DNA of 64,000 nucleotides, taken from the NCBI GenBank assembly GCA_963816185.1, contig CAWFJJ010000028.1:384001-448000 (forward strand). The letters run 5' to 3'. A program made the translations under genes and the position numbers. The notes under the pieces are model-generated. The model saw only the letters and a program-made list of their open reading frames with translations. It did no database searches and was not told the DNA's origin. How positions within the stretch are numbered: position 1 is the stretch's first letter; each line of letters starts with the position of its first letter. This stretch comes from Thermoanaerobaculia bacterium (GTDB taxonomy: Bacteria; Acidobacteriota; Thermoanaerobaculia; UBA5066). Of this stretch, positions 12,689 to 57,540 are shown one piece after another.

Positions 12689-13719
12689 AGAGAAAAGGGA
12701 ACAAGAACTCTTTCTTATATACGGCGGCTGCTGATGCAGCCGCCGATAGAAGAAAGTCTTCTCCCCGAATGGTCGATGTCAAGGGCGTGCTTCGCGCGCC
12801 GCGCAGCGGTCGCAGACCCTTGACATCGGCCATTCGGGGAATACGGTCGTCGACCAAGTCTTTGCGGCGCATCGGCCTCATCGGCGGCTCGGGTCTTTAT
12901 TCACTTCCCGGCCTCGAGATCACTCGCGAAATCGGGCTTTCGACGCCCTTCGGCGACCCCTCCGACTCTTTCTTTCTAGGAAGTCTCTCTTCGGTCCCTG
13001 TCGCATTTCTCGCGCGTCACGGACGTCACCATTCGTTCCTGCCTTCCGAGATCAACTACCGAGCGAACGTCTGGGGGTTCAGGAAGCTCGGCTGCTCGTG
13101 GCTTCTCTCGGCCTCGGCCTGCGGCTCGATGAAGGAGTCCTACGCGCCGGCCGACATCGTCCTGCCGGACCAGTTCCTCGACTTGACGAAGCGGCGCGTC
13201 TCGACGTTCTTCGGAGACGGCTGTGCGGCGCACGTGTCGTTCGCGCACCCCGTTTCGGCCGTTCTTCTCGACGCTGTGGAGGCGGCCGCGAAGGCGGAAG
13301 GGGCCGTGTGCCATCGAGGCGGAACGTACGTGTGCATCGAAGGACCCCAGTTCTCGACGAAGGCCGAGTCTCTGCTCTACCGTTCCTGGGGCGCGGACGT
13401 GATCGGGATGACGAACGCCACCGAGGCAAAGCTCTGCCGCGAGGCGGGGATCGGCTATGCGTCGATGGCGCTCGTCACGGACTACGACTGCTGGCACGAG
13501 GAGCAGGCCGCGGTCTCGGTGGAAGCTGTCCTCGACGTCCTGAAAAGAAACGCCGGCACCGCGAATCGCGTCCTCGCGAACGCCGTTCGCCGCCTCGACC
13601 CGGACAGCCCGAGCGACTGCGCGGACGCCCTCGAGTGGGCCGTTCTCACGCCGAGGAACCGGATCAGTCCCGCCGCCTCGAAGCGCCTCGCGCTTCTTCT
13701 GAACAAGGACGAGAGATGA
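12685..13719 (+). CDS. mtnP: S-methyl-5'-thioadenosine phosphorylase with a 59-aa repeat-derived N-terminal extension
   Basis: IGLIGGSGLY, FLARHGRHH, NYRANVW, EGPQFSTKAES, VIGMT, VTDYDCW; ATGA overlap with the upstream stop; alternative TTG start at 12862. Confidence 0.93.
   Translation: MKRKGNKNSFLYTAAADAAADRRKSSPRMVDVKGVLRAPRSGRRPLTSAIRGIRSSTKSLRRIGLIGGSGLYSLPGLEITREIGLSTPFGDPSDSFFLGSLSSVPVAFLARHGRHHSFLPSEINYRANVWGFRKLGCSWLLSASACGSMKESYAPADIVLPDQFLDLTKRRVSTFFGDGCAAHVSFAHPVSAVLLDAVEAAAKAEGAVCHRGGTYVCIEGPQFSTKAESLLYRSWGADVIGMTNATEAKLCREAGIGYASMALVTDYDCWHEEQAAVSVEAVLDVLKRNAGTANRVLANAVRRLDPDSPSDCADALEWAVLTPRNRISPAASKRLALLLNKDER
12711..12856 (+). repeat. Palindromic element copy 1 (hairpin A + T-shaped hairpin B)
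   Basis: A: CGGCGGCTGCTGATGCAGCCGCCG at 12722-12745; B: CCCCGAATGGTCGATGTCAAGGG..CCCTTGACATCGGCCATTCGGGG at 12763-12839. Confidence 0.95.
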
Positions 13720-16634: not shown

Positions 16635-19190
16635 ATGCAACGCACCGCGACGGCGACCACGAAGGCCGACGAAATCCTCAGGATCGAGGCGAAGTGGCGC
16701 GACCGCTGGGAGGCGGACCGCGCCGCATTCGTGGATACGACGAAGCCCGCGGGGGACGGAACATACCTCCTCGTCATGCTTCCTTATCCCTCGGGCGACC
16801 GCCTGCACGTCGGGCACGCGCGCACATATTTCCTGACCGACGCGCTCCAGCGCTTCCTGCGCCAGACGGGCGTGACCGTGTTCTGCCCGATGGGCTGGGA
16901 CGCGTTCGGCCTGCCTGCCGAGAACTACGCGATCCAGAAGGGCATCCATCCGCGCACCTCCACGCTCGCGAACATCGCGGCCATGAAGGAGCAGTTCCGG
17001 ACGTGGGGCGTTCTTTACGACTGGACGAAGGAAGTCACGACCTGCGAGCCCGAGTACTACCGCTGGAACCAGTGGTTCTTCCTGAGGCTCCTCGAAAAAG
17101 GCCTGGCGGTCCGCAGGAAGGCCGCGGTGAACTGGTGCCCGTCGTGCGAGACCGTCCTCGCGAACGAGCAGGCCGAGGGCGGCGTCTGCGACCGGTGCGG
17201 CACTGCGGTGGTGCCCCGCGAGCTCGAGCAGTGGTTCCTGAAGATCACCGACTACGCCGAGCGCCTGCTGGACGGCCTCGACACGCTCCGCAAATGGCCC
17301 GAGAAGGTCGTCACGATGCAGCGCAACTGGATCGGCAAATCCACGGGCGCCGATCTGGATTTCGCGATCCCGAAGCTGAACGAGACGGTCCGCGTCTTCA
17401 CGACGCGCCCGGACACCGTCTTCGGCGCCACGGCGCTCATCCTCGCGCCCGAGCACGCGCTCGTCCCGCGCCTTCTCGAGGGCCATCCGAAGCGGGCCGA
17501 GCTGGAGGCCTGGGTCAATTCCGTGCGCAGCCAGGAGCGCATCGTCCGCGAGGCCGAGGGAGCCGAGAAGGACGGCCGCGACACCGGCCGCACGGCGATC
17601 AACCCCTTCACGGGGAAGGAAGTGCCCGTGTGGCTCGCGAACTTCGTCATCGCCGACTACGGCACGGGCGCGCTCATGGCGGTACCCGCGCACGACACGC
17701 GCGACTTCGAGTTCGCGAAGAAGTACGGCATCCCCATCGTCAGGGTGATCGAAGAGGGGAAGAGAGAAAAGAAGGAAGATTTGCTTAGAAAGGAAGAGGG
17801 GGAGGGCGCAGCGGCGGCCAGCGGCGACGCGGCTTTGACAGGCCTTCCATACACGGGCGAGGGCCCGCTCATTGCCTCCGGACCATTCACAGGAATCTTC
17901 TCTTCTCTTGCCCGAGAATTCATCGCAGCCGATGCCGCGAATCGCGGCATCGGCGGGCCGCGCGTGCGGTATCGGCTCCGCGACTGGCTCATTTCGCGTC
18001 AGCGCTACTGGGGCACGCCGATTCCCATGATCCACTGCGAGAAGGATGGCTGGGTGAGTGTGCCGGAGAAGGACCTGCCGGTCGTGCTGCCGCCTGACGC
18101 GCCGTTCACGGGCAAGGGCGGCAATCCGCTCGAGAAGGTCGCTTCGTTCGTCCAGACGACGTGCCCTTCGTGCGGAGGCCCGGCCAGGCGCGAGACGGAC
18201 ACGATGGACACGTTCGTGGACTCGTCCTGGTATTTCCTCCGGTACATTGACCCGAAGAACGGCGCGGCGCCCTTCGATCCCGCAATCGTGAGGGAATGGG
18301 CGCCGGTCGACCAGTACATCGGCGGCATCGAGCACGCGATCCTCCACCTCCTGTACGCGCGGTTCTTCACCCGCATCCTGAAGGACCTCGGCCTCGTGAC
18401 GTTCGAGGAGCCGTTTTCGGCTCTCTTCAACCAGGGCATGATCACGCGCCTGTCCCCGACGGGCCGCGTGGAGAAAATGTCGAAGTCGCGGGGCAACTCG
18501 GTGTCTCTCGACTCGCTCATCGCGGAGAAGGGAGCCGACGCCGTGCGCGCGTTCGTCCTCTTCCTCGGGCCGCCGGAGAAGGACGCCGAGTGGAGCGACG
18601 AGGGCATCAGCGGGCCGGAGCGCTTCCTCTGGCGCGTGCGGGGCGCCGTGGACCGGTTCCTCGCGACGGGCGCCGATCCGCAAGCACAGCCGGCGGCGGC
18701 CGACACGCCCGCGGCGCGCGCGCGCCACATGGCGATCAAGAAGGTCACGGAGGACTTCCGGGCGTTCTCGTTCCACACGGCCGTGGCGCACCTCATGGAG
18801 CTGCTCAACGGCGCGGCGGTCCTCGTGAACGACGCGGGCGCGGACGCGGGGGAGACCGCGACGACGCTGCGCACGCTCGTCACGCTCCTCCATCCCATCG
18901 CGCCGCACCTGTCGGAGGAGCTGCACGAGAGGATGGGCGGCACGAAGAGCCTCCTTGCCTCGGGCTGGCCGACCTACGATCCGGCGCTCGCCGAGATGGA
19001 AGAGGCTTCGATCGCCGTGCAGGTGTCGGGGAAGGTGCGTGCCGAGATCAAGCTGAGAAGAGGATCTTCCGAGAAAGAGGCGCTGGCCGCCGCCCAGGCT
19101 GAGGCGGCGCTCTCGCGGTGGCTGGAAGGAAAGCAGATCGTCAAAACCATCTGGGTTCAGGATCGACTGTTGAACATCGTCGTGCGATGA
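16635..19190 (+). CDS. leuS: Leucine--tRNA ligase
   Basis: [51 protein letters not shown]. Confidence 0.98.
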
Positions 19191-19194
19191 GGAG

Positions 19195-19896
19195 ATGCTG
19201 CTTTCGGATTTTTCTGATATGCGGCGGCGGCTGATGCAGCCGCCGATGGATGGCAACGTGCCCTCGGCTGGCCGGAGTCAAGGGTCTTCGACCGCTACGC
19301 GGCGCGCGAAGCGCGCCCTTGACACCGACCAGCCGAGAGCTATCCCTCTCTCTTTTTCCTTCAAAGAAATCTCTCTTTCTTCTCTTTCCTTTCTTGTCTT
19401 TCTTGCCTTCGCTGCCTCTTCGTCCGGCTGCGGGTACACGCTCGTGGGGACCGGGTCGAGCGCGGTGCCCGTCGGCGTCAAGACGGTATACGTGCCGACG
19501 TTCATCAATGAGACGACGGTCGTGGGCCTCGAGCAGCGCCTCACGGACGCCGTCATTCGCGAGCTTTCCGCGCGTGGCCGTCTCAAGCCCGTGTCGGACA
19601 GGGGGGCGGCGGATTCGGAGCTGTCCGGGCAGCTGACATCCGCGTCGGTCGCCCCCGTCCGCTTCGACGCGAACGGAATCGCCGTCGAATATCAGGTGAC
19701 CGTTACCGGAAAGATCGTTCTCACCGAGAAGGCCACCGACAAGCCCATCTTCTCCGAGCCCGCTTACCTGTTCCGGCAGCCATACACCGTGCCGTCGAGC
19801 GCCAGCTCGTATTACGACCGAGAGCGCGAGGCCATCGAGGCGATGGCCCGCCCCTTCGCGCAGAACCTCGTCACGACGATCCTGGAAGGATTCTGA
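19195..19896 (+). CDS. lptE: LPS assembly lipoprotein LptE with a repeat-derived N-terminal extension
   Basis: SSGCGY lipobox at residue 79, VYVPTFINET..LEQRLTDAVIREL, ending ILEGF; directly after leuS. Confidence 0.85.
   Translation: MLLSDFSDMRRRLMQPPMDGNVPSAGRSQGSSTATRRAKRALDTDQPRAIPLSFSFKEISLSSLSFLVFLAFAASSSGCGYTLVGTGSSAVPVGVKTVYVPTFINETTVVGLEQRLTDAVIRELSARGRLKPVSDRGAADSELSGQLTSASVAPVRFDANGIAVEYQVTVTGKIVLTEKATDKPIFSEPAYLFRQPYTVPSSASSYYDREREAIEAMARPFAQNLVTTILEGF
19211..19375 (+). repeat. Palindromic element copy 2 (A + B with inverted interior, then TTCAAAGAA and a pyrimidine tail)
   Basis: A at 19211-19246; B CTCGGCTGGCCGGAGTCAAGGG..CCCTTGACACCGACCAGCCGAG at 19263-19337. Confidence 0.92.
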
Positions 19897-22575: not shown

Positions 22576-23124
22576 TCACTTCCCGGCAGGGCGGGGGCTG
22601 CCTGTTTCCAGAAAGTTCTTGAGCCTTCCCACCTGCTCGCCGACCACTTCGTCCACGATCGGCGCGATCTTCTCGAATCCTCCCGCCATATAGCCGCCGA
22701 TGCCGTACGTGACCACGAGCTTCGTGCCATCTTCGGCTTTCGCGAGGTCCCACGTCATGCTCCCGGCGAGCCCCAGGCCCTGAAGGGGGCCGATGGCGCC
22801 GGTCATGCGCAGCGCCTTGCCCGGGCCTGCGTAGACGACGGTCATGTGCTGGACCCCGCCGCCGTCCGGGAACCTCTCGCAAAAGCAGCCGCCCGGAACG
22901 GCGGCGATCGAGAGGTTCCTGGCATCGTGTGAAAACGTGTGCTCCGGATTCCACCAGCTCCCTACCTTCGCGGTGAGCGTGTCGTAGACGACTCCGGGGG
23001 TGGCCTTGATCGCGACTTCGTGCTTCACGGCGAAACCGCTCGGGCCGACGCTCATGACTTCCGCGGAAAGGGGCGCGGAGAGAAGCGCCACCGCGCAGAC
23101 CAGAATGGATGGAAGTTCTTTCAT
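22576..23124 (-). CDS. Exported SRPBCC/START-like domain protein
   Basis: Signal peptide MKELPSILVCAVALLSAPLSA; WWNPEHTFS, GGCFCE, GAIGPLQGLG. Confidence 0.75.
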   Translation of the reverse strand: MKELPSILVCAVALLSAPLSAEVMSVGPSGFAVKHEVAIKATPGVVYDTLTAKVGSWWNPEHTFSHDARNLSIAAVPGGCFCERFPDGGGVQHMTVVYAGPGKALRMTGAIGPLQGLGLAGSMTWDLAKAEDGTKLVVTYGIGGYMAGGFEKIAPIVDEVVGEQVGRLKNFLETGSPRPAGK

Positions 23125-23182
23125 TTCTGATATTCGGGGCTGCTGATGCAGCCCCGATAGTAGAAACTCTTCTCGCGAGAGC
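23124..23182 (+). repeat. Palindromic element copy 3 (hairpin A only; B replaced by a 10-bp palindrome)
   Basis: TTTCTGATATTCGGGGCTGCTGATGCAGCCCCGATAGTAGAAACTCTTCTCGCGAGA. Confidence 0.88.
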
Positions 23183-24950: not shown

Positions 24951-26369
24951 TCATTCTAGCGTCTTGATCCACGAGGGGGAAAAATTGTTCCCGGAAGAGG
25001 TCACGATGCGGGGCGTGCCGCCGCCGTCCGCGTTTCCGACGGCGATCTGGGTCGAGCTGCCGCGCTGCACATCCCAGGCGATCTTCGATCCGTCCGGCGA
25101 CCACGTAGGGCTCTCGTGGGCGCCCGGCCCGCTCGAAATCTGCACGGTTCGCCCGGTTGCGAGGTCCATGACACAGATCTGGAAATCGCCCTCGTTCCGG
25201 CACGCGAACGCCATCCGCCCCCCGTCCGGCGAGAAAGTCGCCTCGTCGTTCCAGTTCCCGGCGAGCGAGACCCGACGCACGTTCGCACCCTCGAGGTCCA
25301 TCATGAAAATCTGGGGCGTGCCCTGGCGGTTCGACGTGAACGCCAGCTCGCGCCCGTTCGGGGACCACCGGGGCGTCGAGTCGATCGCCACGTTCTCGGT
25401 GAGCCGTTTCAGGTTCGAGCCGTCCGTCTGGACCGTGAAGATCTCGGTGTTCCCCTTCACGCTTCCGCAGAAGGCGATCGTCTTGCCGTCCGGGGAGAAG
25501 GACGGGGACGCGTTGAGCTGCGTCGGGACGCGAATCTGACGCTTGTCGCCTCCGTCCTTCCCGATGAGCCACAGGCCCGGCGTATCCTTCTCATACGACT
25601 GGTACACGATCTTCGCCCCGTCGGGAGACCAGTCCGGCGCGAGCGACAGCGTGTTCGAATAGGTGATCCGGCGCTGGTTGTCGCCGTCGAAGTCCATCGT
25701 GTAGATCTCCTTCACGACGTTCTTCCCCGCGACCCGGTCGCGGTCGGACGAAAAGGCGATCTTCGTCAGGAACGGCCCGGGTTTGCCCGTGAACTGGCGT
25801 ACGAGGTCGCTCGCGAGCGTGTGCGCGATGCGGCGCGCCGCCCGCATCTCGCCGGAGTACTTTCTGCCCATGATGGACTTGAGCGTGCTGAGATCCCAGA
25901 GAGTCGCCTCGACGACGACGCCCCCGCCGTCCGGCGCGAGGTGCGTATCGAGCAGGAACTGCGCCGACGTGGCTTTCCACGCGTCGCCCTCTTCGCGATT
26001 TTGGGGCGGGCGCATCCCCTTCGGGTAAAGAGCCGGATCGGCCACGACGAAGACGCCGGAGCCGGCGAGGTCGTCGGTGAGCGTCGTGTAGAAAGGATCC
26101 ACGGCCCGCGTCTGAAGGTCCGGCGAGATCGGCGCGACCGTCATCGGAATCGCCAGCGGCCGGCGTGCTCCGGTGGCTCCGGTGAGCGTGAGATCGATGT
26201 TCGAGGGCTGCGAGATCCCGGACATGGTCGGAACGGGCTTCGGCGCCTGGCCGAGAAGGGGCGTCGCCGCCAGAGCGAACAAGAGCGCTACGAGCGAGGA
26301 CCGGGGAGAGATATTTCTGATATTCGGGGTTCCTGATGCAGCCGCCCGGGGAAGGGATTCTTTTCTCAT
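24951..26369 (-). CDS. tolB: Tol-Pal beta-propeller protein TolB
   Basis: TolB_N region plus WSPDG repeats; upstream of pal. Confidence 0.93.
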   Translation of the reverse strand: MRKESLPRAAASGTPNIRNISPRSSLVALLFALAATPLLGQAPKPVPTMSGISQPSNIDLTLTGATGARRPLAIPMTVAPISPDLQTRAVDPFYTTLTDDLAGSGVFVVADPALYPKGMRPPQNREEGDAWKATSAQFLLDTHLAPDGGGVVVEATLWDLSTLKSIMGRKYSGEMRAARRIAHTLASDLVRQFTGKPGPFLTKIAFSSDRDRVAGKNVVKEIYTMDFDGDNQRRITYSNTLSLAPDWSPDGAKIVYQSYEKDTPGLWLIGKDGGDKRQIRVPTQLNASPSFSPDGKTIAFCGSVKGNTEIFTVQTDGSNLKRLTENVAIDSTPRWSPNGRELAFTSNRQGTPQIFMMDLEGANVRRVSLAGNWNDEATFSPDGGRMAFACRNEGDFQICVMDLATGRTVQISSGPGAHESPTWSPDGSKIAWDVQRGSSTQIAVGNADGGGTPRIVTSSGNNFSPSWIKTLE

Positions 26370-26594
26370 ATGCGGCGGCTGCTGATGCAGCCGCCGAATA
26401 CTTGAAATCTGCTTCCCGAATGGCCGATGTCAAGGGCGCGCTTCGCGCGCCGCGGAGCGGTCGCGGACCCTTGACATCGGTCATTCGGGGAATACGGCCT
26501 CTCTGCAAAATCTCTTCTCTTCCTCCTTTCCTTTCTTCCACTTCTAAGAAAATCCTCTTCTTCTCTTCTTCTTTGTCTTTCAAAGAATTCCCCT
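26314..26594 (+). repeat. Palindromic element copy 4 (degenerate A + A + B + pyrimidine tail with two TTC-N3-GAA cores)
   Basis: A' at 26314-26347, A at 26373-26396, B at 26413-26492, TTCTAAGAA at 26542, TTCAAAGAA at 26579. Confidence 0.95.
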
Positions 26595-50477: not shown

Positions 50478-50881
50478 TGACTCGGGCCGGACAGGCGGTC
50501 GCCGCTCTCGACGCTTCGGCGGAAGGAGGGGAGGAAAGTCCGGACTCCCGCGGGCAGCGTGCCGGAGAAATTCCGGTCGGGGCAACCCGAAGGAAAGTGG
50601 CACAGAAAACACACCGCCGACGCGCCGCAAGGCGCAGGTAAGGGTGAAAAGGTGCGGTAAGAGCGCACCGCGGTTCCGGCAACGGGACCGGCAGGCGAAA
50701 CCCCACGCGGAGCAAGGCCAAATAGGGTGACGGAAGGGGCGCCCGCCCCCGCGGTTTCGGCCGACGTCACCGGGTCGGTCGCTCGAGCCCGTTCGAAAGA
50801 GCGGGCCTGGAGGAATGACCGCCGGCTGGAAGGCGCGAGCCGACCGGTTACAGAATCCGGCTTATCGTCCGGCCCGAGTCA
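50478..50881 (+). ncRNA. rnpB: RNase P RNA (type A)
   Basis: GAGGAAAGTCCGG, GGTAAGGGTGAAAAGGTGCGGTAAGAGCGCACC, GAGCAAGGCCAAATAG, ACAGAATCCGGCTTA; P1 TGACTCGGGCCGGAC/GTCCGGCCCGAGTCA. Confidence 0.97.
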
Positions 50882-55644: not shown

Positions 55645-55949
55645 TGTACGGCCAGGAAGATTCTCTTAGAAGGGTTAATGAGCGCGGCGCTCGGTCGCGC
55701 GGTGGAGCGGCGACCAGCCCTCTTCACTTTCTAAGAGGAATTAGATTCGGATCTCTTATATGCGGCGGCTGCTGTGCAGCCGCCGATAGTAGAAAATCTT
55801 TCGCTCGAATGGCCGGCGTCAAGGGCGCGCGTAGCGCGCCGCTAAGCGGTCTTCGACCCTTGACTCCGGCCGTTCGAGCGACGTCCGCCCCTCTTCACTT
55901 TCTAAGAAATCTTCATCCTCTTCTTCCTCTTTCTTCTTCCAATGGCTGA
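55641..55949 (+). CDS. Repeat-derived bridging ORF (102 aa) between trpS and scpA
   Basis: Start overlaps the trpS TGA (GTGATG); stop lies just past the scpA ATG (ATGGCTGA); contains element copy 5. Confidence 0.45.
   Translation: MMYGQEDSLRRVNERGARSRGGAATSPLHFLRGIRFGSLICGGCCAAADSRKSFARMAGVKGARSAPLSGLRPLTPAVRATSAPLHFLRNLHPLLPLSSSNG
55656..55940 (+). repeat. Palindromic element copy 5 (inverted TTCTWAGA pair, A, B, tail)
   Basis: A at 55763-55785, B at 55801-55881, 19-bp direct repeats at 55718-55736 and 55889-55907. Confidence 0.95.
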
Positions 55950-57362: not shown

Positions 57363-57540
57363 AGACCGTAGTTCCCGAATGACCGATGTCAAGGGTCTTA
57401 GACCGCTGCGCGGCGCGCGAAGCGCGCCCTTGACATCGGCCATTCGGGAAGAAGATTTTCTACTATCGGGGCTACATCTGCTTCCTCATATCGAAGAAAT
57501 ATTTATTCCCGGGCAGCCGCCGCTCTTGGGGATCGCATGA
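57355..57540 (+). CDS. Repeat-derived bridging ORF (61 aa) between scpB and rluB
   Basis: ATG overlaps the scpB end (ATGGTTGA); stop overlaps the rluB start (ATGA); contains element copy 6. Confidence 0.45.
   Translation: MVEDRSSRMTDVKGLRPLRGARSAPLTSAIREEDFLLSGLHLLPHIEEIFIPGQPPLLGIA
57356..57522 (-). repeat. Palindromic element copy 6 (reverse orientation; degenerate A)
   Basis: B TTCCCGAATGACCGATGTCAAGGG..CCCTTGACATCGGCCATTCGGGAA at 57372-57450; A remnant at 57451-57500. Confidence 0.93.

Follow-up and report, generated by a model that had tools for sequence, protein, structure and literature searches.

An uncultured soil acidobacterium carries a small non-coding hairpin repeat that is dispersed in its intergenic DNA. 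One copy of the palindromic part of this repeat, which we call module B, lies at 19263..19337 of a 64,000-nt stretch of the genome (contig CAWFJJ010000028.1 of assembly GCA_963816185.1, forward-strand positions 384,001 to 448,000; hereafter the window). Module B belongs to a family of non-coding palindromic repeats that is dispersed between genes and confined to one genus-level group of uncultured Thermoanaerobaculia (Acidobacteriota), a lineage that thereby gains a well-defined repeat family, and its asymmetric centre occurs in two orientations (flip/flop). The reading that we consider best, and probable if far from certain, is that of a new family resembling repetitive extragenic palindromes (REPs) and miniature transposable elements with inverted repeats (MITEs), in which flip/flop results from template switching across the stem. 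The flip is most likely a by-product of copying palindromic DNA and not of virus-like replication, and annotators should be warned that flip/flop isomers alone do not signal rolling-hairpin replication or processing by HUH nucleases.

The repeat unit opens with a first hairpin (hairpin A), which is separated from module B by ~12 nt; a short tail, in many cases ATACGG, closes the unit. The consensus around A reads ...ATAT-stem-loop-stem-ATAG-nn-GAAA, the two bases after ATAG being variable. Module B is a 75-nt palindrome. Its outer stem of 20-22 bp encloses a core of 35 nt that is predicted to fold into three mini-hairpins, each with a loop of 3 nt: an arm of 7 bp, another of 4 bp and, in between, a mini-hairpin of 2 bp. 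The result would be a four-way or 'T' junction. The copy at 19263..19337, identified from its sequence and by profile search, lies on the minus strand (the strand on which the GC-rich arm comes first). Its outer stem of 20 bp (19263-19282 with 19318-19337; arms CTCGGCTGGCCGGAGTCAAG and CTTGACACCGACCAGCCGAG) has one A·A and one C·A mismatch and surrounds the GGTC-TTC-GACC arm (19283-19293), the GC-TAC-GC spacer (GCTACGC, 19294-19300) and the GGCGCGC-GAA-GCGCGCC arm (19301-19317). The accompanying hairpin A (19208..19264, plus strand; 9-bp stem and loop at 19225-19245) begins ~20 nt past the stop codon of leuS (16635-19190), with module B ~12 nt downstream of it. All four arms of the junction start with GG/CC, which allows a two-step shift from one form to another that has just as many pairs. 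Both forms are found among the predicted folds; given the GC-rich arms this may be chance. The initial annotation had called for a comparison of the structure as DNA and as RNA: both strands do fold well, better than shuffled sequences in either chemistry (z = -5.8 to -9.1 as DNA, -6.6 to -8.3 as RNA), and for this very reason the predicted energies do not separate a DNA from an RNA structure.

The family extends well beyond the window. A profile built from the five window copies detects (nhmmer; best E = 1.9e-25) 48 distinct module B copies in the source genome (G000; 5.09 Mb in 30 contigs, 94.9% complete), and within the window the 17-nt GC-rich arm has eight matches where 0.67 are expected; together these counts place the repeat far above chance. 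Its distribution over the genus is uneven: 16 of the 24 other genomes searched contain the repeat, with one to 40 matches each, so that copy number ranges from 0 to 40. An exact-pattern scan of one genome per species gave at least 103 loci. Outside the genus there are borderline matches only, including one in the unpublished genome G025, on which no other result rests, and among the matches listed (~80 record titles) all are metagenome-assembled genomes of Thermoanaerobaculia/Acidobacteriota except for one bin labelled Acidithiobacillales. Plasmids, phages and viral contigs yielded no module B match. Among the models of Rfam 15 only RNase P reached its gathering score over the window, and the best permissive match on an A+B unit was a microRNA model at E = 0.14. 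In open-access papers and bioRxiv we found no published description of this repeat.

The anatomy of the module is unusually clean, with a stem that is conserved for pairing only, core stems that are near-fixed between species and loops that follow the rule of DNA mini-hairpins. The outer stem needs only to pair: it is paired in 93% of the cells of a 107-copy alignment, and 12 of its 20 pairs have changed on both sides (257 cells, against 84.7 +/- 14.8 in shuffles), a covariation signal that is abolished by sliding the pairing partner. Compensatory changes are also seen between orthologous copies, and one column pair (20-68) is unpaired in 58 of the 107 copies. The core stems are invariant in this alignment, by construction for its 102 scanned loci since the scan pattern fixed the core stems of loci L013-L115. 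Across 46 anchored copies of the source genome the core stems depart from the consensus at 16 of 1196 cells, the middle bases of the loops differ in about half, and the loop ends are T (first base, 43/46) and C (last base, 37/46) in the GC-rich arm, and G (40/46) and A (41/46) in the spacer. Between species, 16 orthologous pairs differ at 6/416 positions of the core stems (1.4%), at 1/192 of the inner six stem pairs GTCAAG/CTTGAC (0.5%) and at 50/144 of the loops (35%), and at 79/448 of the outer stem positions 7-20 (18%) and 64/192 of the bases just beyond the stem (33%), the last two figures being raised somewhat by the three inverted pairs, which were compared in the frame of the core. Such a stem-loop-stem alternation of conservation at single-base resolution would not be given by gene conversion, and it points to constraint, that is selection, on the core.

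All three loops are 3 nt long in every anchored copy and none is a tetraloop. The exact-pattern scan left the loops free (NNN), so that their statistics are not ascertained by it. In 112 of the 139 copies with a clear hairpin A, the GC-rich arm has a T-N-C loop when read on the core strand, which is G-N-A on the complement, and in eight the core strand itself reads G-N-A; the GGTC arm has G-N-A in 59 and TTC in 19; and the spacer is GC-GNA-GC in 116, most commonly GCGCAGC. The initial annotation had noticed both the GC-GNA-GC spacer in most copies and the prevalence of 3-nt loops of the G-N-A type over RNA tetraloops, and both observations hold in this larger sample. According to the accessible text of two papers, the d(GCGNAGC) mini-hairpin is very stable, contains a sheared G·A pair and occurs at single-strand priming sites (PMC13037366, PMC3201870), and GCGCAGC is the very sequence modelled in the available part of the latter (PMC3201870). 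The spacer resembles this DNA in that the first and third loop bases are conserved and the middle one is free, as a sheared G·A pair predicts; the difference is that d(GCGNAGC), as presented there, is a motif of physical chemistry with proposed roles in phage priming, beside which module B is set by sequence only.

The initial annotation described the interior order of the 19263 copy as the reverse of that of its neighbours. Its reading of 19263-19337 is exact to the letter, and nowhere else in the window does the GGTC arm adjoin hairpin A; its list of copies holds for five B modules, while its 'copy 3' turns out to be hairpin A alone. We refer to copies with the GC-rich arm next to A as form I and to those with the GGTC arm next to A as form II. 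In the source genome 31 copies are form I, nine form II and eight have no clear A, and a looser pairing of A with B gives 33 and nine; among the 103 matches listed from other genomes, 63 are form I, 36 form II and four have no clear A. The 19263 copy is therefore one of nine form II copies in its own genome and not a solitary inversion, and the flip/flop that was suspected is real, common and recurrent. Both forms keep A, the spacer and the distal tail on their respective sides, and B is reversed inside this constant frame. The core stems are all identical to their reverse complements, so that inversion merely exchanges the positions of the arms and turns the loops into their complements. Core orientation is unbiased with respect to GC skew (20/40) and to co-directional flanking genes (12 versus 12, by crude gene calls). 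As an aside, hairpin A is found more often on the G-rich strand (27 of 40 copies), a weak preference that is possibly an effect of gene orientation.

Orthologous loci show how far the inversion reaches. Forty-eight copies were taken with their flanks from relatives and the flanks placed on the source genome, where 44 map to one site; 18 of these sites hold B in the source genome and 26 do not. Fifteen comparisons could be assigned, 12 with the same form and three inverted. The 19263/leuS locus is common to the source genome and its relative G008, in the same form, and in total the same-locus comparisons between species give 13 agreements and three inversions (n = 16), with A and the flanks staying put. 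The frequency of palindrome-centre inversion in bacterial chromosomes can thus be read from a natural data set, here as 3/16. The inverted pairs are C24:74412 versus G008, C25:315317 versus G003 and C24:152066 versus G007; at the second of these loci a further genome, G011, agrees with the source genome while G003 is inverted. In two pairs the stem is asymmetric, with T at distal-arm position 7 and T·G at position 12, and these asymmetries stay in the frame of the flanks, which argues that only the core has turned: inversion of the core alone costs one extra substitution, against two to four for a flip of the whole module. The third pair has perfect stems and carries no information on the extent of inversion, and exact breakpoints cannot be mapped in a stem that is a near-perfect palindrome. 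A metagenome scan with a 20-nt junction word from the 19263 locus returned four matches, all of them unrelated coding DNA.

It is likely that these inversions arise in place. In the mechanism that we envisage, the asymmetric core between the inverted arms would occasionally be copied from the opposite strand at replication, by the kind of template switching known as quasi-palindrome 'spacer inversion'; the same process would copy changes from arm to arm and so help to preserve complementarity, and both isomers could persist since the stems of the core are unchanged by reverse complementation. Template switching between the arms of inverted repeats is described as homogenising the arms and inverting the spacer (PMC8604942, as far as its accessible text goes), and loop inversions together with compensatory changes have been attributed to it (PMC8794818, likewise in part). 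Module B resembles the mutations in the available portions of both papers: a segment between inverted arms is reverse-complemented while arms and flanks are unchanged, the event recurs independently and the arms undergo compensatory change (PMC8604942, PMC8794818). Here the segment bounded by inverted repeats is turned in three orthologous pairs, at three different loci. Unlike those mutations, the inverted 'loop' is a conserved 35-nt set of three hairpins, of which both isomers are maintained genus-wide in a repeat family. Template switching would explain flip/flop, its recurrence, its restriction to the core and part of the covariation, and needs no dedicated enzyme.

Several observations weigh against this account. 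Template switching does not explain why the core is conserved. The core is probably kept because some protein recognises either its folded hairpin or cruciform or its transcript. The concrete question is whether there is such a protein, and which, that can read a four-way junction of 35 nt irrespective of its orientation. The apparent conservation is inflated in so far as orthologs with a decayed core would score as lacking B, although no intermediate class is seen. Across all copies the frequent mismatch at stem position 7 travels with the core (on the core strand, A·A versus T·T is 19:8 for form I, 25:5 for form II), which flips of the interior alone do not predict; possibly the switch points vary and some inversions carry part of the stem along, or two old lineages lie beneath recent core-only flips. 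The ratio of the forms is about 2-3:1 and not 1:1, so that inversion is either slow or one form is favoured. The recurrence of the flip is seen again in a tree of 137 copies, computed without the core, where the form must change 29 times or more (shuffled labels: 37.5 +/- 2.3, minimum 31); this tree, however, rests on ~120 short, repetitive columns and is weak, and we use it for nothing more than the statement that the two forms are thoroughly intermingled. Finally, the inversion is known solely from the comparison of assembled genomes.

The initial annotation had proposed that the element is processed as single-stranded DNA or as a cruciform. A hairpin- or cruciform-forming DNA element is indeed a fair description of module B; it is the expected enzyme that does not accompany it. 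Searches for Y1_Tnp (IS200/RAYT), Relaxase and Rep_trans gave no match in the source genome, with control genomes positive, and those for Y2_Tnp and Viral_Rep gave none either, but there the control searches were equally silent. Y1_Tnp occurs in four of 29 genomes of the genus (G014, G018, G020 and G044), none of them rich in the repeat: G018 and G020 showed none of it, G014 has three matches, and G044, which lay outside the main repeat search, has a few weak matches in another. Neither A nor B lies within 1.5 kb of any of the four Y1 genes, and the HUH endonucleases that were anticipated near the copies were not found (Y1_Tnp, Relaxase, Rep_trans). What may still be imagined is a structure-specific enzyme other than a Y1-type HUH nuclease that recognises the core, mobilises the unit and generates flip/flop by hairpin-mediated copying or resolution, making the repeat a chromosomal analogue of a parvoviral inverted terminal repeat (ITR) or of the REPIN-RAYT pair; we judge this unlikely. 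The near-invariance of the core stems and of GTCAAG/CTTGAC, while the loops and outer stem drift, is the pattern of a protein recognition site, the G-N-A triloops with their free middle base match the d(GCGNAGC) of priming sites as given in the parts of PMC13037366 and PMC3201870 at hand, and the patchy copy number, together with the 26 of 44 sites that hold no B in the source genome, suggests gain and loss. Apart from the enzyme searches, this is countered by the indifference of core orientation to GC skew and by several 'empty' sites that resemble partial deletions and not clean excisions. TnpB was found in none of the 29 genomes, and IS110-type genes, present in 13 of the 29, do not follow the copy number of the repeat. 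Nor were solo arms or a parent element found in the source genome, the one genome searched for them: all 85 close arm matches lie inside B copies, and the 116 arm matches outside B copies each carry three substitutions. The narrower claim that the three-hairpin core is the site of a non-HUH enzyme acting on a cruciform or single-stranded DNA, which spreads and maintains the repeat and flips it by hairpin-templated copying, seems to us unlikely as well. Were it true, bacteria would have in module B a chromosomal equivalent of a viral ITR, in which G-N-A mini-hairpins serve as the structural keys.

Function at the level of RNA would be compatible with the inversions, because the core stems are self-reverse-complementary and a transcript of either isomer bears the same stems. 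In such a scenario, to which we give a small but not negligible chance, A and B are transcribed within operons or at 3' ends as stabilising, processing or terminating hairpins, and flips are tolerated since the stems read the same on both strands. Copies do lie between co-directional housekeeping genes (between leuS and a lipoprotein-like downstream gene, trpS and scpA, scpB and rluB) and are therefore probably transcribed, the RNA folds are strong, and for many REPs an action as RNA has been suggested (PMC3733652, in its accessible sections). Yet an RNA strand should betray itself by an excess of G·U, and the stem mismatches comprise 36 G·T and 43 A·C (30 versus 34 in form I, six versus nine in form II); together with the random orientation of the core, this parity means that no strand is marked as functional RNA. 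The loops, moreover, are all triloops of the DNA-favoured G-N-A type, the units occupy every gene context including divergent ones (in the frame of A and by crude gene calls, ++ 14, -- 10, +- 10 and -+ 5), no T run comes after either hairpin, and no Rfam family matches the unit. As it stands, an RNA role is unsupported. The initial annotation also offered that module B inserts independently of A in either orientation, and one might accordingly see B as a separate miniature transposon, the two forms being independent insertions. Its arms resemble terminal inverted repeats, A occurs without B at three sites of the source genome, and the position-7 mismatch that travels with the core population-wide would be expected. 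This idea is nonetheless very improbable. Whichever its form, B occupies one and the same position, with an identical spacer on one side and tail on the other, A is missing along with B at 24 of 26 sites, the A-only sites show remnants of B arms, and no target duplication or parent element is seen. The two informative inverted orthologs share the rare flank-frame features of the stem, for which re-insertion would need two to four extra substitutions where core inversion needs one. Recombinase switches formally consist of an invertible segment between inverted repeats. Module B has this layout, and a programmed switch operated by a site-specific recombinase on the inverted arms would have to be considered, were it not that the inverted piece is only 35 nt long and has no promoter-like site, that its neighbours are unrelated housekeeping genes with no recombinase gene beside the copies in the window, and that orientation is common to species in 13 of the 16 comparisons; we regard such a switch as improbable in the extreme.

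Module B behaves as an intergenic repeat of the REP/MITE type whose selected core is independent of orientation, albeit with clear differences from the known systems. Like REPs and REPINs as characterised in the accessible parts of three papers, module B is a short GC-rich extragenic palindrome that numbers tens of copies, is specific to a lineage, persists at orthologous sites in different species, is often built into composite units and can fold as a single strand (PMC3116915, PMC3337134, PMC3733652). Unlike them it bears no GTAG or CGTC tag at its ends, A being followed by G-A-T-A-G and then variable bases (for the definition, as found in the available text, see PMC3733652). The REPIN-RAYT system further differs in that the source genome has no Y1/RAYT gene and that the core is a three-hairpin junction and not a single stem-loop or REP doublet. 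Correia, ERIC and BOX are other bacterial intergenic hairpin repeats. With MITEs and repeats of this kind, in so far as the consulted portions of two papers describe them, module B shares the size class, the intergenic location, inverted terminal arms (20-22 nt in B) and presence/absence polymorphism (PMC3184786, PMC10969869). It differs from them in that no parent insertion sequence sharing its arms turned up in the source genome and that B accompanies A at a fixed spacing; a target-site duplication was not seen either, in alignments that contain no clean empty site. The ITR of adeno-associated virus (AAV) has two small palindromes of unequal size, with loops of 3 nt, inside an outer one, and its isomers differ by interior inversion; it forms the ends of a linear single-stranded genome, the HUH protein Rep nicks it at a fixed site, and flip and flop are equally frequent. 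Module B is similarly T-shaped, with an outer stem around small palindromes and two isomers by interior inversion. The analogy with AAV that the initial annotation drew breaks down on location and on ratio: the copies are internal in long contigs, on the chromosome beside housekeeping genes (leuS, trpS, scpAB, rluB) and absent from viral contigs and phages, no HUH gene was found in the source genome, and the forms stand at 2-3:1 where 1:1 would be expected.

The window holds five B modules in total, each with an adjoining hairpin A. Apart from the copy downstream of leuS, all are form I. Module B at 12764..12838 (plus strand) is preceded by hairpin A at 12706..12765 (plus), and that at 26415..26489 (plus) by two tandem A hairpins at 26309..26416 (plus). 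In the trpS/scpA intergenic region B occupies 55804..55878 (plus) next to A at 55751..55802 (plus), while in the scpB/rluB intergenic region the entire A+B unit is on the minus strand, with B at 57374..57448 and A at 57447..57503. The units at 55804 and 57374 form an inverted pair, and the genes enclosed by it are scpA and scpB, not a transposase. The window also has A-only hairpins near 26309 and 23121. The latter (23121..23175, plus strand, in a region extending to 23200) is followed by a short CTCGCGAG palindrome, which may represent the joined outer ends left by a deleted B stem; a similar B-stem remnant is found at C29:155343 in the source genome.

Gain and loss mostly concern the entire unit. 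At 24 of the 26 sites without B the source genome also lacks A, so that A+B acts as one unit, and the two rows that keep A are the same site, C29:155343. Eleven alignments of filled with empty sites show intergenic DNA that has been replaced or partly deleted, with no clean empty site and neither clean excision footprints nor target duplications; in one partial deletion (C28:77575-77728 of the source genome) a ...CGGGAAATACGG tail is retained. At the leuS site, only the source genome and G008 have A+B, and most species of the genus have nothing or a different GC-rich element. This other element of ~70 nt (…TTCGAGTGGTCGCGGGCGG…GCCGCGCTCCGGG…) is seen at L118:2385-2520 and also in L119, L120, L122, L124, L125 and others, and has no Rfam match. 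Two further candidate identities were discarded. A terminator is rejected since a scan of the consensus shows no T run after either A or B, and attC sites of integrons were dropped because the copies are single and dispersed between conserved housekeeping genes without cassette arrays, no integrase search having been run.

The modules can be rearranged as well. Three truncated copies of B in the source genome (C24:130059, C25:499867 and C30:540001), in which a common G-rich hairpin (…GGGGGTCCGGGGGCGCCCGAAGGCAAGCCCCCGG…) replaces the proximal arm, constitute a chimeric sub-family. Some units have A-like hairpins on both sides of B, in varied orientation (C8:244868, C25:420620, C28:223883, C1:396378 and C24:509895), which implies that the modules combine in more than one way. 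The source genome also contains 11 matches to the IS110 family, none adjoining a repeat unit; six with an equal score of 54.1 bits (C2:6234, C24:337853, C24:734084, C25:393243, C25:608617 and C25:610599) have similar open frames, five of them of 403 aa, and look like copies of one insertion sequence.

Two other sequence features recur near the units. Long pyrimidine-rich (CT) tracts of low complexity follow many of them ahead of the next gene start, for example at 19340-19400 of the window. The palindrome TTCTWAGAA occurs eight times in the window (26542, 37175, 37208, 50362, 50436, 52196, 52368 and 55900), where 0.06 occurrences are expected, and recurs just outside many A+B units in the source genome and its relatives. 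One copy lies upstream of the gene for RNase P RNA (50483-50880), at a distance of ~40 nt, and TTCTWAGAA may be a lineage-specific promoter or operator element.

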